A stretch of 32,000 nt of DNA, taken from assembly GCA_963804745.1 (NCBI GenBank), contig CAWDRY010000006.1, forward strand, positions 8,668 to 40,667, given 5' to 3'. The position numbers were made by a program, and so were the translations under genes. The stretch comes from an uncultured Gemmataceae bacterium (GTDB lineage: Bacteria; Planctomycetota; Planctomycetia; Gemmatales; Gemmataceae). Below the pieces are notes generated by a model. It saw only the letters and a list, made by a program, of their open reading frames with translations, was not told the DNA's origin and ran no database searches. Below, piece after piece: positions 5,702 to 17,074 of this stretch; the stretch's first letter is position 1; every line of letters begins with the position of its first letter.

Positions 5702-6547
5702 TCAATACGAGCACGTGACCTGAACGCGGACCGTGATGGGTGACGGGTTCGATTCCGAAGAAACACCATATGTATATGGACTGATCAATCCATAACTCGG
5801 TTGGTCCGTCAAGAAAGTAAAATCGTTTCCTGTCAGAACGTGGATCTCAACAACACTTATCTTGGCGTCTCCGACCGCGGCCTGCGCATTGGCCAGGGCT
5901 TCATCCACGGCTTTCTTGATGGCTTCCCAACGCGCCTCGCCGGCATTCTCGCTCGACCATTCGATCTTGGGTGCATTATGCGTGGTCCCAATGCCAGGAT
6001 AACTAAGGATGACACCGCCAGAAACCTGCGGGGCAGTTCCACCGTTCTCGGATGCGACATCGGCCAGCTTGGTAACGATGTCGCGCAGACTGTCTTCGTT
6101 CTTTTCCCGAATCGTCACGTGGAAAGTGGTGTGTGTCTGCTTGTTCTCAGCCGCAGGAGTGGGGTGTTTGGATCACCCAGTCTGGGAATGGATACCCATG
6201 GGATACTGCCCACCACCAAATGGTGGAGCGGTCACTGGGATGATGATCCCTATTGCGGCAGGAACAATCTGTATATCCACATTCTTGAAGTTCAAGGCTG
6301 TAAGGGCGTCTTTGATTTTTTTCACTTGCTTGGTGTTCTCATCCCGGACTTTCTTGGCATCAGCATCCACGGTGGTAACGACGAAAGTGATACGAGCCTT
6401 GTCCGGTTTCACGGACACCGTTGCGGAACCGGAGACAACGAGTTTGCGCTTGGCAGTTGCCGGTGTGTCCTGGCCGTGCGCGGGTGCAATCCACGCGCTT
6501 GACCACGCCAACAGAGCAAGGGCGGCAATTTTGCAAGAAGCAGACAT
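5702..6547 (-). pseudogene. SIMPL/DUF541-like secreted protein, paralog 1, interrupted by an in-frame TGA
   Basis: ORFs 6173..6547 and 5702..6118 are in the same frame and collinear with the intact paralog 8107..8973. They are separated by TGA at 6173-6175, after which the reading continues SKHPTPAAENKQTHTTFHVTIREKNEDS. GGAGG RBS before the ATG at 6547. Confidence 0.6.
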
Positions 6548-6799
6548 GAATCGACCTCCAAGAATGTTGTTGAATGGAAAACGACCGCATGCGAACCTAT
6601 CCGTCAGGTTACATGGTGAAGTATATGGGCGAGTGGTCCAGTGATTGATGACGGGGCTTGCGACTTTGGATCTGTTGAGTTTCTCTAGAAGGCACGGCCG
6701 GGGAATGAGCCATAGCCCGGTATGCCGCCGACAGGGACACCTGCGGGGAGACCGCCATAGCCTGCGGGGAGACCGCCAAAGGCTGCGGGGAAAGGGCTA

Positions 6800-7470
6800 A
6801 GGTACGGATTTGTCGCAAGCGGGTTTGCCACATAGGGGTTCGTCGCAAGCGGGTTTGCCACATACGGGTTTGCCATACGGGTTTGCCATTGCCACATAGG
6901 GGTTTGTCGCAAGCGGGTTTGCCACATACGGGTTTGCCACATAGGGATTTGTCGCGAGCGGGTTTGCCACATAGGGGTTTGCCACATACGGGTTTGTCGC
7001 GAGCGGGTTTGCCACATACGGGTTTGTCGCACGGGTTTGCCACATACGGGTTTGTCACATAGGGGTTTGCCACATACGGGTTTGTCGCATAGGGGTTTGC
7101 CACATACGGGTTTGTCGCGAGCGGGTTCGCCACATACGGGTTTGTCTGATACGGGACTGCCGGATACGGGTTTGTCGGATTATACGGGGTCGGATACGGG
7201 TTTGTCGGATTATACGGGGTCGGATACGGGTTTGTCGGATTATACGGGGTCGGATACGGGTTTGTCACATACGGGTTTGGCTGATACGGGTTTGTCACAT
7301 ACGGGTTTGTCACATACGGGTTTGGCTGATACGGGTTTGTCACATAAGGGTTTGTCCCGAACGGGTTTGGCTGATACGGGTTTGTCGCGAACGGGTTCGT
7401 CGCGAACGGGTTCGTCGCAAACTGGTTCATCGCGAACGGGTTTGTCGCAAACGGGTTTGTCACAAACGGA
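6800..7470. repeat. 15-nt periodic tandem repeat array (gggtttg(c/t)c(a/g)cata(c/g)-type)
   Basis: About 45 consecutive 15-nt units, all coding (5 aa per unit). Two aberrant 13-nt units lie at about 7021-7033 and 6866-6878, and one 21-nt unit at about 6879-6899. Confidence 0.85.
7161..7266. repeat. perfect 30-bp tandem repeat, 3.5 copies
   Basis: cggatacgggtttgtcggattatacggggt occurs at 7161, 7191 and 7221, with a partial copy from 7251. It encodes the decapeptide NPYPTPYNPT on the minus strand. Confidence 0.9.
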
Positions 7471-7932
7471 GAGGTGCCGGCGCCCTGCGATCCGTAGGTG
7501 GTGATGTTGATATTGGTCTTGGTGATGTTGATTAGAGCGGCATGAGAGAACGTGGCGCTTAGCAACAGCCCCGCCATGGCTGTACCGATGACGGCCGTTG
7601 GTCGCAGAAATTGCTGGAGAAACCTCATGATAGCACTCTGGGAGAGCAACGCGAAGGAACGGGACAGCACGTGCGTTGCCTGCGAACCATCCCGATGGTC
7701 ATGGGCCCCGCGGTTTAGGCTTGAACCAAGTCGCCTGGCCTTGTCGGCTCCAGGATACTCACAAGAGAGACGTTTCCCAGGCGATAACTTGCGCGCCTTT
7801 TTCTTTTTTTTGGCAGTGCCTCAAGTTTAAGAATCAGTGGAGTTTGCGTCTCATGGTGAACCTGGCAAGGGTAGGAAAGGACCGAATCCCGCATCCTTCG
7901 GAGAAAAAGGCGAGCGGCAAGACTTAATTTAC

Positions 7933-7985: not shown

Positions 7986-8106
7986 AGTAGGCTTGCACTT
8001 GCCACTCGCCTAAGCACAGACAAGGCGGACTTCAGCGGCATGAGCAGCAGCCGTGATCTCCTTCATTCAGCATGAATCCGCGGGCCGGGTCGTAAGGTCC
8101 GTTACT

Positions 8107-8973
8107 TCAATACGAGCACGTCACCTGAACGTGGACCGTGACGGGTGACGGGTTCGAATCCGAAGAAACACCATATGTAGTATATGTATATGGTGTATAT
8201 GGACTGAACAATCCATGACTCGATTTGTCCGTAATGAAAGTACCATCTCCTGTCACAACCTGGATCTCAACCTCAACAACAGTTATCTTGGCGTCTCCGG
8301 CCGTGGCCTGCGCATTGGCCAGGGCTTCATCCATGGCTTTCTTGATAGCTTCCCGACGCGCCTCGCCGGTATTCTCGCTCGACCATTCGATCTTGGGTCC
8401 ATTATGTGTGGACCCACTGCCATAATAAGCAGGGGGGAGGCCACCGCCAGAAACATCCTGCAGGGCAGTCCCACCGGTCTCGGATGCGACATCGGCCAGC
8501 TTGGTAACGATGTCGCGCAGACTGTCTTCGTTCTTTTCCCGGACCGTTAAATAGAAAGTGCTGTGTGTCTCCTTGTTCTCAGCCGGAGGAAGGGGGTTGA
8601 ATGGGCCACCAATGCCACCAGGACCAAATCCTTGGCCTGGACCAGCCCCGCCCTGAGCGGGCACCAGGACGGTACTTATTGCGGAAGGAACAACCTGTAT
8701 ATCCACATTCTTGAAGTTCAAAGCCGTAAGGGCGTCTTTGATTTTTTTTACTTGCTTGTTGTTCTCATCCCGGACTTTCTTGGCATCGGCATCCGTGGTG
8801 GTAACGACGAAAGTGATACGAGCCTTGTCCGCTTTCGCGGACACCGTTGCGGTACCAGAGACAACGAGTTTGCGCTTGGCAGTTGCCGGTGCGTCCTGGC
8901 CGTTCGCGGGCGCCAACCACGCGATTGACGAGGCCAACAGAGCAAGAGCAGCGATTTTGCAAGAAGCAGACAT
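8107..8973 (-). CDS. SIMPL/DUF541-like secreted protein, paralog 2 (intact)
   Basis: GGAGG RBS and ATG at 8973, identical in context to paralog 1. Signal peptide MSASCKIAALALLASSIAWLAPANG. KLVVSGTATVSAKADKARITFVV...DALTALNFKNVDIQ fits the SIMPL/BP26-like pattern as I remember it. Confidence 0.6.
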   Translation of the reverse strand: MSASCKIAALALLASSIAWLAPANGQDAPATAKRKLVVSGTATVSAKADKARITFVVTTTDADAKKVRDENNKQVKKIKDALTALNFKNVDIQVVPSAISTVLVPAQGGAGPGQGFGPGGIGGPFNPLPPAENKETHSTFYLTVREKNEDSLRDIVTKLADVASETGGTALQDVSGGGLPPAYYGSGSTHNGPKIEWSSENTGEARREAIKKAMDEALANAQATAGDAKITVVEVEIQVVTGDGTFITDKSSHGLFSPYTPYTYTTYGVSSDSNPSPVTVHVQVTCSY

Positions 8974-9088
8974 GAATCGACCTCCAAAAATGTTGTTCAA
9001 TACGACTCTATGCGGACCTATCGGTGATATTATACGGTGACGTACAAAGTTGCCAGCCTGGGGCGTGAAACATGCTTTCTTTTAAGTC

Positions 9089-9161: not shown

Positions 9162-9569
9162 ATGGCCATCAGCCGCATTGACCTCATGTTCCGGGCCTTC
9201 TCCGATCACACGCGCCTGCGCATCCTTTCACTGTTGCAGGGCGCGGAGTGTTGCGTGGGCGACCTCGTGGACATCCTCCAAACCGAACAGCCCAGCATAT
9301 CTCGGCACCTGGCTTACTTGCGGCGGGCCGGCCTGGTGGCTGTCCGCAAGTCCAAACAGTGGAGCTATTACTCGCTGGCACCGGCCCGAGGAGAGTTTCA
9401 TCAGAGACTGTTGGAGTGTCTGGCCTGCTGCTTCCAAGAGGTACCCCAGATCCAGGCCGACCGGGCCATAGCGGGCAAGGTCAAGGAAGCCGGGGGCTGC
9501 TGCCCAGGGACAGCCCGTTCCAAGGCAACACCAAAGCTAAAGTCCAGGCGTTCCTGCGTTAATTTTTGA
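9162..9569 (+). CDS. arsR: ArsR/SmtB-family metalloregulator with several vicinal Cys pairs
   Basis: FRAFSDHTRLRILSLL...CCVGDLVDIL...QPSISRHLAYLRRAGLV...R+...W.YY is a typical ArsR wHTH. Cys30-31 sit at the position of the ELCVCDL site, with further pairs at C89-C90 and C113-C114. Confidence 0.85.
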   Translation: MAISRIDLMFRAFSDHTRLRILSLLQGAECCVGDLVDILQTEQPSISRHLAYLRRAGLVAVRKSKQWSYYSLAPARGEFHQRLLECLACCFQEVPQIQADRAIAGKVKEAGGCCPGTARSKATPKLKSRRSCVNF

Positions 9570-9579
9570 GGGGAAGGCC

Positions 9580-9831
9580 ATGCCGAAAGCCGACCATCGA
9601 CCTTGTTACGGAACCATTTTCCCCGAACCCCGGCACGCCGACTCGGTTGGACAGATGAGGGGCAAGGTATTCTCTTTGCAGGCGGTGACCCCGGCCGGGA
9701 TGCTTCCGCAGGTTCGCACGGTGGCGGCCGACCTCAGCCAGTGGGATGACTGCCTGGAATGCCCGGAGTTCAGCCATTGCTACCAGTTCTGCATGGCAAG
9801 GCTGGCTCTTGCGACTGCAATCAACACCTGA
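9580..9831 (+). CDS. small Cys-containing hypothetical protein
   Basis: 83-aa ORF starting 10 nt after the arsR stop, with a GAGGGGAAGG RBS-like tract. Third-codon positions are GC-rich. CLECPEFSHCYQFC motif. No family recognised. An overlapping antisense ORF also exists. Confidence 0.4.
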   Translation: MPKADHRPCYGTIFPEPRHADSVGQMRGKVFSLQAVTPAGMLPQVRTVAADLSQWDDCLECPEFSHCYQFCMARLALATAINT

Positions 9832-9942: not shown

Positions 9943-10716
9943 ATGCGTCACTATTTACTGCGGGGCCTTGTCACGGCCCTGGTTCTGTATGGGATCAGCC
10001 ACTGGGCCGATTTCTCTTTGCGGGCACAGTCTGCCGTTCCCGCATCGGCCGGCGAGACAGCCATCGCCACGGCAGCCCAGGAGAACAAGTACCTGTTCAT
10101 CATGTTCTGGAAAGAGGACGACATGACCGCCCGGACCATGTGGCAGACACTCAAGACAGCCGTGGGCAAGTACGAGCGCTATGCCAAGACCCTTCAGGTG
10201 AATGTCACGAGTCCGGCCGAGAAAGTCCTGGTGGATCGCTATGCCCTGAGCCGTTCGCCCATGCCCCTGGTCATGTCCATTGCGCCGAATGGGGCCATCA
10301 CCGGCGGCTTTCCGCTGAACCTGACGGAGCAGGACGTCGCCAGCGCTTTCGTTAACCCGGGCAAGGCCATGTGCCTGAAAGGAACCCCAGCGCGTAAGCT
10401 CGTGCTTCTTTGCGTCCTGCCGGGGCCTACCAATGTGTTGCCGACCGGGGTCCTCAACTTCAGGGCGGACCCCCAATACGGGCCATACACCGACTTGGTG
10501 ACCGTCCAGGCCAACGATACGGCCGAGGCCAGCTTTTTCCAGAGCCTCAAGATCAATCCAAATGGCACTTTCATCACGGTGTTGCTGGCGCCGCCGAACA
10601 AGATGCTAGGGGCTTTTGAGGGAGCCGTCAGCATGGAGCAACTCGTCGAGCTGCTCAAGTCCGCCAAGAGTCCCTGCGCCGGAGGCCAATGTGGGCCGGG
10701 CGGTTGTGGGCCGTAA
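9943..10716 (+). CDS. exported double thioredoxin-fold-like protein with a C-terminal SPCAGGQCGPGGCGP tail
   Basis: AAGGAGAGAGG lies before the ATG at 9943. Signal or anchor MRHYLLRGLVTALVLYGISHWA. Two Trx-like halves (KYLFIMFWKEDD...PMPLVMSIAPNGAITG; KLVLLCVLPG...GTFITVLLAPPNKMLG), neither with a CxxC. The protein ends in a three-Cys tail. Confidence 0.6.
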   Translation: MRHYLLRGLVTALVLYGISHWADFSLRAQSAVPASAGETAIATAAQENKYLFIMFWKEDDMTARTMWQTLKTAVGKYERYAKTLQVNVTSPAEKVLVDRYALSRSPMPLVMSIAPNGAITGGFPLNLTEQDVASAFVNPGKAMCLKGTPARKLVLLCVLPGPTNVLPTGVLNFRADPQYGPYTDLVTVQANDTAEASFFQSLKINPNGTFITVLLAPPNKMLGAFEGAVSMEQLVELLKSAKSPCAGGQCGPGGCGP

Positions 10717-10766
10717 TAGGAGAATGTGTCTCCTCGCGCTTGCAGCAGAGTGACATTGCTGCCGGC

Positions 10767-10841
10767 GTGGCCGGGGCTGCGTCCGCGAAGCCCCGGTAAT
10801 TGCGGTCCTTGCCGGGGCTTCGCGGACGCAGCCCCGGCCAC
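10767..10841 (+). terminator. 30-bp perfect-stem hairpin, candidate intrinsic terminator
   Basis: gtggccggggctgcgtccgcgaagccccgg (10767-10796) is the exact reverse complement of 10812-10841, with a 15-nt loop, followed by ccgcccattttgtt. It lies 50 nt after the stop at 10716. Confidence 0.55.
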
Positions 10842-10870
10842 CCGCCCATTTTGTTAGGAGGACAAAGACA

Positions 10871-12088
10871 ATGCGTCTACCGACGCTGATTAGAAAGGAA
10901 CTTTGGGAGCGGCCCATCCCGATGTTGACCTGCTTCCTGGCCATCCTGCTTGGCGTCACAGCCCTGGTGGCCATCCGCACGGTGACGGTCTTTTCCGAGT
11001 CGGCCGTCGCTCGGGAACTGGATGCCCTGGGGGCCAACGTGCTAATCCTGCCCAAGAATGTCAGCCTACAGGACTACTACGCCGCCGACCTCCACGGCGA
11101 AACGCTGCCGGAGGAATATGTCGAGCGGATCACCCTGTCCAAGCTGGAAGGCGTGGACAACCTGTCGCCCAAGCTGTGCGTGCCGGCCACGCTAGGCAAC
11201 CTGCCAGTGACGCTGACCGGTATCCTGCCCAAGAGCGAGTTCCAGGCCAAGGCCGCCTGGGGCAGCGTAGGCATTTTCACCCATCCCAGCGGCTGCGGGT
11301 CACAGGCCGACCTACCCGGCAACAAGCCCGCCGACCCGAAGACCCTGGCCCGCAAGCGTGTGATCGAGACCCTCGGCGAGCACGAGACGCTCATCGGCGC
11401 CGACGTGGCCGCTCGACACGGGCTGAAAGAGGGCGACGCGATGGAATTGCTGGGTGAGAAGTTCACTGTCCTGGCGGTGTTGCCGCCTACAGGCACAGTG
11501 GACGACGCCCGCGTCTTCGCGCACCTGCACACGGTACAACGACTGGCAGGCAAGGGGGAAGTGGTCAATGTCATCGAGGTGGTCGGCTGCTGCAAGCAGA
11601 TCGCCGGTGGGTTGGTGGACGGGCTTAACCGGCTCCTGCCCGAGGCCAAGGTGGTGACCATTACCCAGGTGGTGCAGACGCAGCAGAACGTCAACCGGCT
11701 AATGGAGCGGTTGTCTTTGATCTTCCTGGCCGTGTTGCTGGCGGTTGGAGGGGCGGCGATGGCCAGCACCCTGTACGCCAATGTCTCGGAGCGACGCAAA
11801 GAGATCGGCACCCTGATGGCTCTGGGGGCGACCCCGGGGCTGGTACTGCGGCTGATTGTGGGCAAGGCCGTGGTACTGGGATTGGCGGGAGGAGTAGGCG
11901 GTTTCCTGATTGGCAGTGCGGCGGCACTGTGGTTGGGGCCGCAACTGGCTGGTGTTTCGGTCCGTCCCCTGCCGTCACTGGCGGGGCTGGCAGTAGGTAG
12001 TGCCTTGGCAGTCACCCTGCTTGCCAGCCTGCCGCCAGCATGGCGTGCTTCCCGGCTTGATCCGTGTGTTTGTTTCAAGGAGGTTTAA
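10871..12088 (+). CDS. ABC transporter permease, FtsX/MacB-type
   Basis: AGGAGG RBS at 10855-10860. N-terminal TM, an extracytoplasmic domain of about 250 aa, then the C-terminal FtsX bundle (RRKEIGTLMALGATPGLVLRLIVGKAVVLGLAGG...ASRLDP). Confidence 0.8.
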   Translation: MRLPTLIRKELWERPIPMLTCFLAILLGVTALVAIRTVTVFSESAVARELDALGANVLILPKNVSLQDYYAADLHGETLPEEYVERITLSKLEGVDNLSPKLCVPATLGNLPVTLTGILPKSEFQAKAAWGSVGIFTHPSGCGSQADLPGNKPADPKTLARKRVIETLGEHETLIGADVAARHGLKEGDAMELLGEKFTVLAVLPPTGTVDDARVFAHLHTVQRLAGKGEVVNVIEVVGCCKQIAGGLVDGLNRLLPEAKVVTITQVVQTQQNVNRLMERLSLIFLAVLLAVGGAAMASTLYANVSERRKEIGTLMALGATPGLVLRLIVGKAVVLGLAGGVGGFLIGSAAALWLGPQLAGVSVRPLPSLAGLAVGSALAVTLLASLPPAWRASRLDPCVCFKEV

Positions 12089-12091
12089 ATC

Positions 12092-12784
12092 GTGTTGCGA
12101 CTTGAAGCAGTGAGCAAGACGTTCACCCGCCGCGGCGGCTCGGTCGTCGGCCTGCACCCCGCCTCTCTGGAAATTGACGGCGGTGACTTCGTGGCCGTGG
12201 TTGGTCCCTCGGGCAGCGGCAAGACAACATTGTTGTCGATCGTGGGCGGAATGCTGGCCCCCACGACCGGGCGGGTGTTGTTGGAAGGCCAGTCTCTCTA
12301 CGAGCTATCCGTGAGGGCGCGAACGATCCTGCGCGGTAGGAAGATCGGGTTCGTTTTCCAGACGTTCAATCTCGTCCCTTTCTTGACCGCTCTGGAAAAT
12401 GTGCAGGTGCCGCTCTACCTGGCGGGCCTCGCTCCGAAGGAACAACAGCGGCGGGCGCTGGCGGCATTAGACCGCGTCGGGCTGGCCGATCGCGTCCAAC
12501 ATAAGCCGAGCGAGTTGAGCGTTGGTCAGCAGCAGCGCGTGGCCCTGGCTCGAACGCTGGCCAATGACCCAGTTCTGATCCTGGCAGATGAGCCGACCGG
12601 TAATCTCGACCCGGCCACGCGCAAGCAGGTGCTCGAAATGTTCGATGAGTTCAACCGCGAAGGCCGCACCATTGTCATGGTCACTCATGACCCTGAAGCT
12701 GCGGGTCACGCCCGGCGGGCGTTGCTCCTGGACCAGGGGACCGTCTGTAGTGACCCGAGCGCCGGACAGGTGTGTGTGGCTTGA
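12092..12784 (+). CDS. ABC transporter ATP-binding protein (MacB/LolD-like)
   Basis: GTG start 3 nt after the permease stop. Walker [11 protein letters not shown]-loop FVFQTFNL, signature [13 protein letters not shown], Walker [13 protein letters not shown]-loop VTHD. Confidence 0.9.
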
Positions 12785-13396
12785 TAGGAAGGTCCTGCGA
12801 GCCAATCTGAAAAGGTGAGAAAGAACAAGGAGATAGATTTCCATGATTAAAGGAACATTTGTCAGCCTCATTTTGGTGGTTGGGCTTGGGTTGGCGTTTA
12901 CCCTGTCCAGTTGCAACTCTGGTCAGCGGCGGGTCCAGACAATTGTCCCAGCTCAAAGCCCCTGCGCCGGCGGCAAGTGTGGGCCCGGCGGTTGCTGTTC
13001 TTCCGGCGGTGACGGTCGGTGCTGCCCGCCGCAGGGCGGCTGGGCCGGCGGTTGCAATTATTCCGTCGGTGACGGTAGCCAGCCGACAGACCCCCACGCC
13101 GACGGTAAAAGTATAGGCCCGGCGGTTATTGCTCCTGACCCAGGGGACCGTCCGTAGTAACCTGAGTGCCGGAGAGATGTATGTGGCTTGATGGGAAAGT
13201 CCTGCGGGCCAATCTGAAAAGCGGATAAAGGACAAGGAGATAGATTTCCATGACTAAAGGAAGACTTGTCGGCCTCATTTTGGTGGTTGGGATCGGGTTG
13301 GCGTCTACCTTATGGCTGGTTCTTCACACTTCTAACGGGGATAGTTCCAGAGGGGATTCTCTGACCGGTGGCGCTGGGGTCCAGACAACTGTCCCA
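12711..13396 (+). repeat. tandem segmental duplication (offset about 406 bp)
   Basis: 12711-12950 is about 85% identical to 13117-13396. The duplicated unit carries the last ~75 bp of the ABC ATPase gene, the spacer ...caaggagatagatttccATGa(t/c)taaagg and the signal-peptide start. The second copy therefore holds a fossil of the ATPase 3' end. Confidence 0.8.
12843..13157 (+). CDS. small Cys-rich putative lipoprotein (signal peptide fused directly to an [13 protein letters not shown] motif)
   Basis: AAGGAGA RBS. MIKGTFVSLILVVGLGLAFTLSSC is a lipobox-like signal. It is followed by [41 protein letters not shown]. The stop lies inside the duplicated fossil of the ABC ATPase 3' end. Confidence 0.5.
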   Translation: MIKGTFVSLILVVGLGLAFTLSSCNSGQRRVQTIVPAQSPCAGGKCGPGGCCSSGGDGRCCPPQGGWAGGCNYSVGDGSQPTDPHADGKSIGPAVIAPDPGDRP

Positions 13397-14080
13397 AGCC
13401 TCGACATCTCCCGGGCAAGCCACTCTGGAAGCCGCTGCCCAGGAAAATAAGTACATGTTCATGCTGTTCTGGAAAGAGGATGACTCCGCCACGCAGTCTT
13501 TGCGGCAGACACTCGATGCCGTCCTGGTTAAGCGCGTTGAAAAGGCCGCGGTGGCTCACGTGCATGTCAGCGACCCGGCGGAAAAGGCTTTGATCGATCG
13601 TCTAGCCCTGAACCGCTCGCCCATGCCCTTGGTCTTGGCCTTTGCGCCCAACGGCGCTATCACCGGCGTCTTTCCACTGAAGCTTACTGAGCAGGACGTG
13701 GCCAGCGCCTTTGTAAGCCCGGGTATGGCTAGTTGTCTGAAAGGAACCCAGCGCGTAAACTGGTGCTCCTGTGCGTGCAACCGGAACCAGGTAGCGAGTT
13801 ACCGGCCGGCGTCCGGGATTTCAAGGCGGACAGCGAGTATGGACCCAATACCGAAATAGTTACTGTCCGGGCCGACGACACAGCCGAGGCCGACTTTCTG
13901 CACAGCCTTGAGATCAAGCCCACTGGCACCGTTATCACGGCGCTGCTGGCTCCGCCGGGCAACATGCTCGGGGCTTTCGAGGGAGCCGTCACCAAGGACC
14001 GTCTGGTGGAATGCATTAGTGCGGCTCGAAGCCCCTGCGCCGGCGGCAAGTGTGGGCCAGGCGGTTGTGGGGCGAATTAG
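13250..14080 (+). pseudogene. paralog of the 9943..10716 Trx-fold/Cys-tail protein, two frame switches as sequenced
   Basis: Signal peptide in ORF 13250..13450. Trx-like half 1 in ORF 13368..13859 (AAQENKYMFMLFWKEDD...PMPLVLAFAPNGAITG). Half 2 and the tail [16 protein letters not shown] in ORF 13733..14080. The second switch is at ccc 13747-13749, where the paralog has cccc (10385-10388). Confidence 0.7.
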
Positions 14081-14165: not shown

Positions 14166-15287
14166 GTGCTTGCAACACAAGCAGAACCGAAGACCCTAAC
14201 TTGTCCGCTGCCGCGCCTGTCCTTCCTGGATCGCTTTCTGACGCTGTGGATCTTCCTGGCCATGGCCGTGGGTGTGGGCCTCGGTCACTTTGTCCCGGCC
14301 GTCAAAGGGCTTATCAACCAGTTCCAGGCGGGCACTACCAACATCCCCATCGCCATCGGCCTGATTCTGATGATGTACCCGCCGCTGGCCAAGGTGAAGT
14401 ACGAAGAACTGGGAGACGTTTTTCGCAACTGGAAGATCTTGAGCCTGTCGCTGGTGCAAAACTGGGTGATCGGGCCGATCCTGATGTTCGGGCTTGCTGT
14501 CGCCTTCTTCGGGCTGTTGGCGCCGGTCGTCTTCGGTGAGAACCCCAAGTACACCGAATATATGATCGGGCTGATTATGATCGGGCTGGCCCGCTGCATC
14601 GCCATGGTGATCGTTTGGAATGAACTTGGCAAGGGTGACACCGAATACTGTGCAGGTCTGGTGGCCTTCAACAGCGTCTTCCAGATCGTCTTCTACAGCG
14701 TCTACGCATGGGTTTTCATCACCCTGCTGCCGCCCCTGCTTGGCCTGCAGGGCAGCGCGGTCGCTGTCACCATGGGCCAGATCGCGGAGAGTGTCTTCAT
14801 TTACCTGGGCATTCCCTTCCTCGCTGGTCTGTTGAGCCGCGTGGTGCTGTTCAAGATCAAGGGCCGCGAGTGGTACGAAAAGCGGTTCATTCCGCGCATC
14901 AGTCCGATTACACTGATTGCCCTGCTCTTCACCATTCTCGTGATGTTCAGCCTCAAGGGCGAGCAAATCGTCCGCATTCCCGTCGATGTGTTGCTGATCG
15001 CGATTCCGCTATTGATCTACTTCGTGGTCATGTTCCTGGTCAGCTTCTGGATGGGCAAGCGCATCGGTGCGGACTACTCCCAGACCGCCACCCTGTCGTT
15101 CACGGCGGCCAGCAACAACTTCGAACTTGCCATCGCCGTGGCGGTCGCAGTGTTCGGCATCGGCTCCGGCGTTGCCTTCGCCGCCGTCATCGGCCCTCTG
15201 GTGGAGGTGCCGGTTTTGATCGGCCTTGTCAATGTGGCGTTGTATTTCCGGCGGCGGTACTTCCGAGCCGACCAGTCCGGCGGATAG
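14166..15287 (+). CDS. acr3: ACR3-family arsenite efflux transporter
   Basis: [23 protein letters not shown]...[23 protein letters not shown]...[14 protein letters not shown] is the ACR3 signature region. About 10 TM segments. GTG at 14166 follows GGAG. The ORF track extends upstream to 13908, but that part overlaps the previous gene. Confidence 0.85.
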
Positions 15288-15297
15288 GAGAGCGGCC

Positions 15298-15831
15298 ATG
15301 GAACAGGAGCATTCGCATTTGCATGGCCCAATCAAGGGAAAGCGATGCCGGCCACAATTTCGCAGACGCCTTGTTCAGGAGCAAATGTTTATGGGTGACC
15401 AGACCCAACCTGTCTTCCCCCGCCTACGAGTTCTATTCGTCTGTATCGAGAACTCGAACCGGAGTCAGATGGCCGAAGCTTTCGCTCGTTTCCACGGTGG
15501 CGGCAAGATCGACGTCTACAGCGCGGGCTCGCGACCGTCGGGGCGAATCAATCCCCGAGCGGTGGAGTTCATGAAAGAGGTCGGCTACGACCTGTCCACC
15601 CACCAGTCCAAGTCGCTCAACGATCTGCCGGATTTCCCTTTTGATGTGGCCGTGACGATGGGCTGCGGCGATGCCTGTCCGCTGGTACGGGCGAAGCGGC
15701 GCGAGGAATGGAACATCCCCGATCCGAAAGACCTGCCAGCCGAGGAGTTCCGGAAGGTTCGCGACTTGATCGAAAGCAAGGTCAAGGACCTGCTGGCCAA
15801 CATTTATGACCTGGCTGAGCATCAGGTTTGA
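15298..15831 (+). CDS. arsC: LMW-PTP-family arsenate reductase
   Basis: LRVLFVCIENSNRSQMAEAF carries the CX5R(S) P-loop. Also SAGSRPSGRINPRAVEFMKEVGYDLS and VTMGCGDACP...WNIPDP. AGGAG lies 7 nt before the ATG at 15298. Alternative starts at 15385 and 15391. Confidence 0.8.
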   Translation: MEQEHSHLHGPIKGKRCRPQFRRRLVQEQMFMGDQTQPVFPRLRVLFVCIENSNRSQMAEAFARFHGGGKIDVYSAGSRPSGRINPRAVEFMKEVGYDLSTHQSKSLNDLPDFPFDVAVTMGCGDACPLVRAKRREEWNIPDPKDLPAEEFRKVRDLIESKVKDLLANIYDLAEHQV

Positions 15832-15842
15832 ATCATAATCCC

Positions 15843-16621
15843 TCAGCCCTTGAGCTTTTGAAAGATCCCGGCCAGTTTGGTCTTGTAAATCGTGCGGACC
15901 ATCTCCTCGTCATCGTGGAGCGGCTTGACTGGCACAAGGTCCATCACATCTTCGGCGCTCAGGCCGGAACCGAAGAAGCTCTGTGCTGCACCTGTGACCA
16001 TCGCGGCTAGCCCCGCATCCACTTCACCGAGAGACAGACCGAACGATAGACCCAGTTCGCGGAGTTGCTGGAACTGGAACCAGAGGTAAGTCGGTCCCAT
16101 CGCCGTCAGCACTGCATAGGCTTCCAGTTTCTCCTCCGGCACGACTGGGCAAGCCCCCAGCATACGCAAGAGGTCCAGCACTTTCCCGCGGCCCCATTCA
16201 TCGAGGCCCGGCCCGAAACTGACGGGGTTGTAGCCCGCGCCAATCAGCGACGGCGCATTCGGGATGGTGCGGGCGATGCGGGCAAAGCCGTCCAGCGCTG
16301 CGCTCAACTTCGAGATGGTGATCTTGGGGGCAAGGGACACAACCACGGCATCGGGCCGCAGATGCCCGGCCAGCGGCTTGAGGGCTTCCAGCAATACGGG
16401 CGGGTGGACAGCCACGAATACATGGTCCATATGTCCCAGCGCCAGGGCGCATCCGGCGTGCTGCGGATGGTCGGGAACTGCTCCTTGAGCTTCTTCAGTA
16501 CCTCGCTGTTCGGCTCACTGACGACCACCTCGGCAGGCATGTACTCGGCCCGTTGCCAACCGCTCAAGATAATCCGAGCGATCCTTCCTCCACCGATAAA
16601 ACCGACTGTGTTTGCTGCCAT
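15843..16621 (-). pseudogene. pyrroline-5-carboxylate-reductase-like NAD(P) oxidoreductase, one frameshift as sequenced
   Basis: AGGAG RBS and ATG at 16621. Rossmann N-terminus MAANTVGFIGGGRIARIIL in ORF 16304..16687. The remainder (VFVAVHPPVLLEAL...IPNAPSLIGAGYNPVSF...EKLEAYAVLTAMGPTY) is in ORF 15843..16430. Frame switch at about 16445-16465. Confidence 0.55.
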
Positions 16622-16769
16622 GATATTATCTCCTGTTACACAATTCATTTCCTGCTCACGCGCTGGCGGCCGCCGGAAACCAGCCACGGGTCCGGTTACA
16701 GGCGGCGCAGACGGTCAGCATCACCGGCACTTCAACCAGTCCTTTCACCCGAGAACTTTGGCAAGCAAG

Positions 16770-17063
16770 TCAGCAACAATCCGTATCCGAACAGCAGCAG
16801 CTAGACTTGCCGCCCCGCAGTGCCCCCTTGATGATCGCCGTGGCACAACCAACGCCCGAGCGGACCGAGATGGCTCCTGTGGGGCAGTTCTTGGCGCAGG
16901 CGCCACACTCCATGCAGGCATCACGGTCGGCGATCCTCGCCTTCCTGGTCTCAATGGCAAACACAGCATGCGGGCAGACGTTGACGCACATGCCGCAACC
17001 GTTGCACCGTGATTCCACGAGAGTCAAAGTCACGGAGTCTGACAAGTAGCGCAAGCCAACCAT
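16770..17063 (-). CDS. hgcB: HgcB, 2x[4Fe-4S] ferredoxin of the mercury-methylation pair
   Basis: GGGAGGA RBS and ATG at 17063, 11 nt after the hgcA stop. 97 aa: CNGCGMCVNVCPH, then DRDACMECGACAKNCPTGA, with a C-terminal Cys tail SSCCCSDTDCC. Confidence 0.85.
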   Translation of the reverse strand: MVGLRYLSDSVTLTLVESRCNGCGMCVNVCPHAVFAIETRKARIADRDACMECGACAKNCPTGAISVRSGVGCATAIIKGALRGGKSSCCCSDTDCC

Positions 17064-17074
17064 CACCGTCCTCC

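Follow-up and report, generated by a model that had tools for sequence, protein, structure and literature searches.

Arsenic resistance is among the best catalogued of stress systems, and every step of it that we know of is either cytoplasmic or a transport step at the inner membrane. The classical S3 site for As(III) consists of a vicinal cysteine pair plus a third cysteine, as in ArsD, ArsA and several ArsR types. Type VII ATP-binding cassette (ABC) systems are known to handle lipoproteins, peptides, antibiotics and heme, and to activate cell-wall hydrolases. Here we analyse a 32,000-nucleotide (nt) stretch of DNA from an uncultured Gemmataceae bacterium (GenBank assembly GCA_963804745.1, contig CAWDRY010000006.1, positions 8,668 to 40,667 of the forward strand), hereafter called the window. 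In it, genes for a type VII ABC permease, its ATPase and exported thioredoxin-fold proteins with a cysteine-rich C-terminal tail (tail proteins) lie inside an arsenic-resistance (ars) gene cluster.

These genes belong to a conserved module of Planctomycetota that comprises one or two tail proteins, a type VII permease, the ATPase that goes with it and a cysteine-rich ArsR. We propose that the module is the periplasmic arm of resistance to As(III), and possibly Sb(III), in which the metalloid would pass from tail to permease through a thiolate relay. We give this proposal even odds. We infer metalloid binding, its hand-off, the direction of transport and what ATP does; the fold, the export signals, the conservation of the tail and of a permease cysteine triad, the gene linkage and the embedding among ars genes are established here. 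We lean somewhat against the broader claim that such a relay, served by exported thioredoxin-fold chaperones that resemble ArsD in function and are unrelated to it, amounts to a new class of arsenic resistance. If true, bacterial arsenic detoxification would acquire its first described step that uses an ABC system and its first in the periplasm, and MacB/Lol-type machines their first metal(loid) substrate. A periplasmic module that is conserved and tied to ArsR would extend arsenic resistance by a compartment and a mechanism, and would give type VII ABC systems a new kind of task.

A conserved module that usually lies inside ars gene clusters

The coordinates and features originally predicted for arsR, the tail-protein genes, the ABC pair and acr3/arsC were all confirmed, and the locus reads as follows (ORF, open reading frame):

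9162–9569, plus strand: arsR (Pfam HTH_5, 56.9 bits; metalloregulator model NF033788, 85 bits)
9580–9831, plus strand: orf83, an 83-residue cysteine-rich ORF (C..CxxC..C..C; CYG...CLECPEFSHCYQFC) between arsR and gene A
9943–10716, plus strand: gene A, an exported 257-residue protein with two thioredoxin folds; tail codons at about 10669–10713
10767–10841, plus strand: GC-rich hairpin in the gap that separates gene A from the permease gene; perfect 33-bp stem, 9-nt loop
10871–12088, plus strand: ABC permease, 405 residues (passes the Pfam cut-offs for FtsX, with 59.4 bits, and for MacB_PCD, with 35.5 bits)
12092–12784, plus strand: ABC ATPase, 230 residues (ABC_tran, 114.9 bits), similar to LolD, FtsE and the MacB nucleotide-binding domain
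12710–12902 and 13117–13309, plus strand: the two copies of a 193-nt direct repeat, 87% identical
12843–13157, plus strand: mini-ORF, 104 residues; lipobox LSSC, then the tail motif, then GRCCPP...GGC
13250–14080, plus strand: gene C, a full-length paralogue of gene A, readable after two single-base frame switches
14166–15287, plus strand: acr3, arsenite efflux permease (TIGR00832, 450 bits against a cut-off of 283; SBF Pfam match)
15400–15831, plus strand: arsC, arsenate reductase of the low-molecular-weight protein tyrosine phosphatase type (LMWPc Pfam match)

This order, arsR ... acr3-arsC, puts the module inside an ars gene set under ArsR. By its sequence, the arsR product is an ArsR/SmtB repressor dedicated to the module: it carries C31, C86, C90 and a C-terminal GGCC, and orthologues of 55–70% identity adjoin the module in about 30 loci. 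When these orthologues are aligned, the three cysteines prove invariant and the GGCC is kept in 81–88%. The arsC product matches ArsC NCBIfam models, with scores below the equivalog cut-offs.

We compared neighbourhoods across 80 genome loci. A further locus, L081 (ENA ERZ25039512, contig_44984), comes from a relative of the window that is 96–98% identical to it, which makes 81 distinct loci. Orthologues of the permease and ATPase genes lie directly 3' of the tail-protein gene in 74 of the 80, usually across a gap of 4–50 nt, and the intact permease genes encode proteins 49–72% identical to the window's. Six loci gave no permease match in ORF clustering, four of them ending at a contig edge at or just inside the permease gene; L009 and L049 hold orphan tail-protein copies with no ABC genes nearby. 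The linkage of tail protein to FtsX/ABC pair is thus near-obligate. The source records name the permease orthologues generically or as "MacB".

The link to ars genes recurs as well. ArsR is found in 50 of the 80 loci, Acr3 in 27, ArsC in at least 17 and the arsenite methyltransferase ArsM (NF008823, above cut-off) in 14, and Acr3, ArsC or ArsM is present in 37. Other recurrent neighbours are an ArsF-like CxxC thioredoxin (NF040494; seven loci), a resistance-nodulation-division (RND) pump (seven) and a DsbD_2 membrane protein (six). The complete genome of Caulifigura coniformis Pan44 (CP036271.1, about 2.372–2.394 Mb) carries, on one strand, arsR, an arsM-arsD fusion, arsA, arsC, acr3, the tail-protein gene, the permease and ATPase genes and another arsR. 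The associations with FtsX/ABC and with ars genes, first noticed in the window, therefore extend across genomes.

Gene A encodes an exported protein whose AlphaFold2 model, built on a 32-sequence alignment, has a predicted local distance difference test score (pLDDT) of 87.8 and consists of two beta-alpha-beta-alpha-beta-beta-alpha thioredoxin units. Foldseek searches of the PDB returned tandem-thioredoxin proteins, namely PDI a-b/b-b', QSOX, the AhpF N-terminal domain, PfPDO and calsequestrin, with best E values down to 9e-7. Model and search agree with the original prediction of two thioredoxin-like halves without CxxC, a motif found nowhere in the protein. By sequence, a profile search of PDB entries gave a match to PDI only (E = 0.4); neither gene A nor the mini-ORF matches any Pfam or NCBIfam model, and the Pfam scan of gene A gave no match to PF06953 (ArsD).

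The C-terminal end of the protein reads SPCAGGQCGPGGCGP. Its cysteines stand at positions 144, 157, 245, 250 and 255, the last three forming a C-x4-C-x4-C tail (window sequence PCAGGQCGPGGC). Residues 244–257 have low pLDDT, and the tail is probably flexible or disordered as modelled.

The family to which gene A belongs is large and unnamed, and lacks any existing annotation. A word-indexed search (E <= 1e-3) yielded 744 homologues, all "hypothetical", of about 250–290 residues and devoid of Pfam domains, and an exhaustive profile search of 1.84 billion representatives yielded 924 clusters at 50% identity (701 at E <= 1e-10). Scanning one genome per GTDB species with the family alignment as query identified 205 species genomes with a relative, nearly all from Planctomycetota; the same scan with the single gene A protein gave no match. 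Carriers include Gemmataceae, Pirellulales, Thermoguttaceae, Gimesia, Stieleria tagensis and Allorhodopirellula solitaria. Naming the family would improve annotation in hundreds of Planctomycetota genomes.

Conservation concentrates on the tail. The family alignment shows no variation at C245, G248, C250, P252 or C255 and hardly any at C144 and C157. Of 120 close homologues, 119 have three or more cysteines among their last 35 residues, as do 111 of 116 proteins taken from the loci. CCPGGKCGP is the tail consensus, and in 87 of the 120 close homologues the tail contains CC-x4-C. Tail forms include PCAGGKCGP(G/N)GCGPKK, CGPGGCGPGGCGPKK, CCGPGCSCHH, SCGV(D/E)GCKHCKE and CCDDPNCKHGH, of which SCGV(D/E)GCKHCKE is found in a clade with Gimesia among its members. 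As hundreds of homologues conserve it, the motif reported in the window is not a chance feature.

The tandem thioredoxin fold raises the question of redox function, since PDI, the AhpF N-terminal domain and PfPDO are redox scaffolds of the same build. Tail proteins might then be periplasmic thiol-redox or buffer proteins, sacrificial or repair dithiols that would shield cytochrome c maturation, for example, against As(III); the ABC pair would regulate or recycle them by disulfide exchange with its cysteine triad and would itself handle no metalloid. Conserved cysteines in both partners fit this explanation, as do the ArsF-like CxxC thioredoxin and DsbD_2 genes in six to seven loci. However, neither thioredoxin domain contains CxxC, which is absent outside the tail in all 120 close homologues, and the conserved cysteines sit in a disordered tail, away from the thioredoxin active-site position. 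Type VII ABC systems, moreover, are not known for redox chemistry. On balance we consider a purely redox role improbable.

The partner of the tail proteins is a type VII (MacB/LolCE-like) ABC permease. It has four transmembrane (TM) helices, a large domain with a MacB-like core that lies in the periplasm between TM1 and TM2 (residues about 54–263), and a C-terminal FtsX domain (PF02687) with three of the TM helices; the FtsX and MacB_PCD matches compare with cut-offs of 25.5 and 27 bits. Its profile aligns by sequence to the TM regions of MacB, LolE, LolC and YtrF, and to solved structures in the TM region only. The AlphaFold2 model (pLDDT 74) matches LolE, MacB, Spr0695, YbbP and HrtB over the full length in Foldseek, with E down to 3e-17 and with LolE and LolC as the top folds. 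A single permease gene implies a homodimer. Compared with L081, the gene shows 51 synonymous and 6 non-synonymous differences, which indicates strongly purifying selection.

Calling this pump "MacB-type", as the original prediction did, captures the fold and misses the organisation. The ATPase is a separate gene, no family of MacA-type adaptors or outer-membrane factors recurs across the 80 neighbourhoods, and MacB in the strict sense was rejected on these grounds and on the score (NF007826, 30 bits against 966); the pair is a type VII ABC system and not a tripartite efflux pump. The permease scores far below the lolCE, MacB and FtsX equivalog cut-offs, while the ATPase matches LolD, FtsE and DarD models, all below their equivalog cut-offs, and is most similar to LolD. 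Assignment as a LolCDE equivalog fails likewise (lolCE TIGR02212, 41 bits against 362; LolD TIGR02211, 211 against 308).

The periplasmic domain between TM1 and TM2 carries three cysteines, C142 (codon 11294–11296) and C240-C241 (11588–11593), that are invariant in 57 locus-derived and 31 database orthologues. C142 belongs to an invariant P-x-G-C-G motif in a predicted flexible loop, and C240-C241 to an I-E-x-x-G-C-C motif at a strand-helix junction.

With LolE and LolC as its nearest solved folds and an ATPase closest to LolD, the ABC pair might instead be a Lol-like or secretion-type extractor that frees the lipoprotein paralogue or the tail protein itself from the inner membrane. The tail protein would then be cargo instead of a chaperone for the pump, and would serve as an arsenic-binding shield at the outer membrane or cell surface. 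The distribution of lipoboxes speaks in part for this: in at least 19 tandem pairs the upstream tail-protein copy has a lipobox and the downstream copy has none, the reverse was never seen, and the mini-ORF of the window has one too. Yet 33 of 37 single-copy loci have no detectable lipobox and still keep the ABC pair, the lolCE score falls far short of its cut-off, and extraction of acyl chains would leave the invariant periplasmic cysteine triad unexplained. We judge an extractor unlikely, although slightly less so than a redox role.

A proposed thiolate relay and its metal

In the relay that we propose, the flexible tail would act in the periplasm much like ArsD in the cytoplasm, capturing As(III), perhaps also Sb(III), as a tri-thiolate. 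The metalloid would then move by ligand exchange from the tail to C142, C240 and C241 of the permease. Mechanical coupling of the kind seen in other type VII ABC systems would carry the effect of cytoplasmic ATP hydrolysis to the periplasmic domain and distort the cysteine site, releasing the metalloid outward and resetting the carrier.

We propose a periplasmic thiolate relay because the tail motif is ArsD-like and the cysteine sets resemble the classical As(III) site. In C. coniformis the ArsD domain has the motif CCSTGVCGP and the tail protein of the same operon has CCPGGKCGP, so that both follow a CC-x4-CGP pattern; in ArsD, CC-x4-C is the As(III) site (Cys12/13/18). The original prediction suggested that the tail proteins could be periplasmic metal(loid) chaperones or substrates for the ABC system. 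That interpretation is partly supported. The computational checks that it named, on tail conservation and on linkage to FtsX/ABC and ars genes, all turned out favourably, and there are two additional points in its favour, the invariant periplasmic triad of the permease and the pattern common to ArsD and the tail; the metal binding and the role that it assigns are putative.

Several observations weigh against the relay. As(OH)3 is neutral and diffusible, and what would be gained from an ATP-driven periplasmic step is not obvious. Because no adaptor or outer-membrane channel is conserved near the module, the route out through the outer membrane is unexplained. The C142 loop is modelled with pLDDT below 50, so that the proximity of the three permease cysteines cannot be read from the model. 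The tail cysteines would have to stay reduced in an oxidising periplasm, and DsbD_2 and CxxC thioredoxin genes are nearby in only six to seven loci. Window genes A and C lack the first cysteine of the CC pair; they carry PC-x4-C-x4-C, which keeps three cysteines. Finally, a full-text literature search found no description of the module. One mention of FtsX in an arsenic paper concerned something unrelated.

The reductant question touches a group of loci with further neighbours. At L010:3895–4551, L078:5280–6140 and five to six further loci each, the module lies near a gene for an ArsF-family CxxC thioredoxin-like protein (NF040494, 108 bits) or a DsbD_2 protein. These could supply periplasmic reductant, or they could belong to an ArsEF-type organoarsenical system.

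Not every branch of the family keeps arsenic company. The clade that includes Gimesia has histidine-containing tails (SCGVDGCKHCKE), no ars neighbours, a Cys/His-rich ORF and sometimes an RND pump. Its CKHCKE-type loci are L011, L016, L024, L028, L031, L033, L043 and L070 (for example L031:7308–7700); ArsR and ars genes are absent from most of them, the Cys/His-rich ORF, which encodes an exported protein of 130 residues (CCSHACHLHDHHEPLEHDEHHNCPCACH), lies directly upstream, and some have the RND pump. The module is therefore not specific for arsenic everywhere, and in this clade it may have been retargeted to another metal. In addition, 5 of the 81 distinct loci (L081, of the window's lineage, and L007, L034, L050 and L073) have hgcAB at most 8 kb from the module, which keeps Hg among the possible ligands. 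Like the points above, both observations count against an arsenic relay.

They raise the alternative that the architecture is as we describe it and the ligand is different: Hg(II), Cd(II), Cu(I)/Ag(I), Zn(II) or a broad range of thiophilic metals, with the ars context reflecting general metal islands. ArsR/SmtB regulators sense many metals, and histidines enter the tails of some clades (CSCHH, CKHCKE, CKHGH). Gene neighbourhoods point the other way for the Cys-only clade, the window included, whose recurrent neighbours (Acr3, ArsC, ArsM, ArsD/ArsA and an ArsF-like protein) are arsenic-specific. Loci with Cys-only tails have ArsR in 45 of 62 cases and Acr3, ArsC or ArsM in 30 of 62; for loci with histidine-containing tails, CSCHH and CKHCKE pooled, the corresponding counts are 6 of 18 and 7 of 18. 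The CSCHH-tail loci nevertheless keep ArsR, Acr3 and ArsC, and none of MerR, MerP, MerA, CopA and CzcD is conserved beside the module. As for hgcAB, its co-location with ars genes is already known in general (PMC7438021; bioRxiv 10.1101/2022.10.17.512643). A different or broader metal range for the module as a whole is thus unlikely, though of the alternatives considered here it is the one we take most seriously.

The arsenic relay can be put to a direct test, given that the module occurs in cultured organisms (C. coniformis Pan44, Stieleria tagensis and Allorhodopirellula solitaria) and that genetic manipulation is feasible in some lineages of the phylum. The short cysteine tail and the Cys-triad domain could also serve as metalloid-binding parts.

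Local history of the window locus and its surroundings

The original prediction described three related versions of the tail protein as a set: gene A, a mini-version and a third, frameshifted gene. As a set, this does not generalise. The usual architecture elsewhere is one or two full-length paralogues 5' of the permease gene, the upstream one often a lipoprotein, and about half of the loci have two in tandem. The mini-version is a lineage-specific chimera found in the window and L081 only, and in none of the 80 other genome loci.

The description of the mini-ORF itself was accurate, in that its lipobox joins the tail motif directly and additional cysteine pairs follow. Its construction betrays its origin. 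The 193-nt direct repeat (family D2) takes in the last part of the ATPase gene, the spacer that holds a ribosome-binding site and the codons of the signal peptide; a 20-nt stretch just past the signal peptide and the tail-coding block are shared with gene C; an internal 60-nt repeat is present, and GGC-rich repeats follow the tail motif; and the mini-ORF closes with a relic of the ATPase gene's 3' end, read in the wrong frame. Built of duplicated pieces (repeat families D2, D4, D9 and D12) and an out-of-frame relic, the mini-ORF is a duplication/deletion chimera, and from its sequence we regard it as a lineage-specific by-product of local duplication and an uncertain coding sequence.

A designed trio, in which the two full versions and the mini-version had separate functions, would draw on the ribosome-binding site, the clean lipobox and extra cysteine pairs of the mini-ORF, and on its retention in a second strain, L081. 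The repeat-built body and out-of-frame 3' end of the mini-ORF argue otherwise, as does its absence from the other loci. So does its divergence from L081, with 0 synonymous and 5 non-synonymous differences (small numbers) against 51 and 6 for the permease gene, which gives no sign of selection on the frame. L081 also lacks 559 nt (window 13506–14064), a deletion that takes out most of gene C and marks the spot as structurally unstable. We think a designed trio very unlikely.

Gene C is, judging by its sequence, probably an intact second copy. As originally reported, reading it through takes two changes of frame. One is due to an extra A at 13396/13397, the other to a C3 run (13747–13749) that is C4 in gene A. 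Repaired, it encodes 276 residues that are 63% identical to gene A and keep every family-invariant residue. The switches are single-base homopolymer indels and likely, although not proven, to be consensus errors of long-read assembly. Four points favour error over real pseudogenisation, which we judged less likely: the retention of all invariant residues; the absence of the extra A from L081, which has a different one-base indel of its own in gene A; the splitting of the proC-like gene and hgcA in the window; and split FtsX genes in several loci from long-read metagenome-assembled genomes.

The proC-like gene (F420_oxidored/P5C reductase), at 15843–16687 on the minus strand, is split into two overlapping ORFs, a further sign of single-base indels. 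In L081, unlike in the window, the SIMPL gene and arsR are separated by a 5.4-kb insertion (L081 1456–6826) that contains WD40-repeat genes.

Between gene A and the permease gene, the stretch 10717–10875 folds as RNA at -105 kcal/mol (z = -9.9) around the 33-bp hairpin. A role as a conserved regulatory feature was rejected, given that the gap is 4–50 nt in most loci and that long hairpins or palindromes occur there in few (L005, L047, L078 and L021). The hairpin may be an insertion of the repetitive extragenic palindromic (REP) type or a device for differential expression.

The small ORF between arsR and gene A, orf83, has no Pfam or NCBIfam match, and a word-indexed search gave four close matches, none of them named. 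Homologues of 39–52% identity adjoin ars genes in L001, L002, L026, L034, L043 and L074, and in several loci they lie next to Acr3 or ArsC independently of the module.

Further genes lie around the cluster, and with hgcAB and a chromate transporter among them the region is a mixed metal(loid) island:

16770–18672, minus strand: hgcA and hgcB, just downstream of the ars cluster
18248–19453, minus strand: chromate-transporter family gene (TIGR00937, 224 bits), adjoining hgcA
5702–6575 and 7996–9058: a SIMPL/DUF541 gene region present twice, at about 84% identity, with the upstream copy apparently fragmented
6609–7670, minus strand: 353-residue ORF with (V/A)TNPY-type repeats followed by CGKP(V/A/L)CGKP repeats; signal-peptide-like N-terminus, may be frameshifted at its end

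The hgcA product has the cap-helix motif GVNVWCAAGKGTF and a CC-rich N-terminal extension (NF040863, 327 bits against a cut-off of 275), its gene being split by frameshifts, and the hgcB product (NF040864, 128 bits against 99) ends in SSCCCSDTDCC.

Relation to described systems

ArsD offers the closest functional parallel. Like the tail proteins, it has a thioredoxin fold without the redox CxxC and is encoded in ars operons. Its metalloid site, CC-x4-C, which in the C. coniformis ArsD domain is followed by G-P, resembles the tail consensus, and it hands As(III) to a three-cysteine site of an ATP-driven export system, the ArsA ATPase. The differences are those of compartment and design. ArsD is a cytoplasmic, single-domain protein with its motif near the N-terminus and with ArsA/ArsB as partners, whereas each tail protein is an exported two-domain protein whose motif stands at the very C-terminus and whose partner is a type VII ABC permease. 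Homology between the two was rejected: the hhalign probability is 3.6%, only the cysteine motif aligns and no PF06953 match was found.

For an ABC-driven hand-off of metal in the periplasm, the conceptual precedent is NosDFY-NosL, in which an ABC ATPase and permease drive conformational changes of a periplasmic module so as to move a soft metal from its lipoprotein chaperone onto an acceptor in the periplasm. That system differs from the module in its ABC-2 type permease NosY, in its unrelated periplasmic proteins, in its metal and in its purpose, which is cofactor assembly and not detoxification.

Haft's SAO locus, described as "Cys/Sec-overloaded", likewise encodes ABC subunits and a thioredoxin-like protein, all with extra CC/CU motifs, and its author reads it as handling heavy-metal-containing species (bioRxiv 10.1101/2022.07.06.499078). 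It has no homology to the module. In SAO the transporter is an importer of the MetI type, accompanied by substrate-binding proteins and a MerB homologue, and the system occurs in anaerobic Firmicutes and others.

The ABC pair stands with the type VII systems MacAB-TolC, LolCDE, FtsEX, HrtBA, Spr0694-0695 and YbbAP. It shares with them the periplasmic domain between TM1 and TM2, a LolD/FtsE-like ATPase and the principle that ATP hydrolysis in the cytoplasm powers work in the periplasm. What sets the module apart from these systems is the lack of conserved MacA and TolC partners nearby, a divergent periplasmic domain with its cysteine triad and a new partner, a thioredoxin-fold protein with a cysteine tail.

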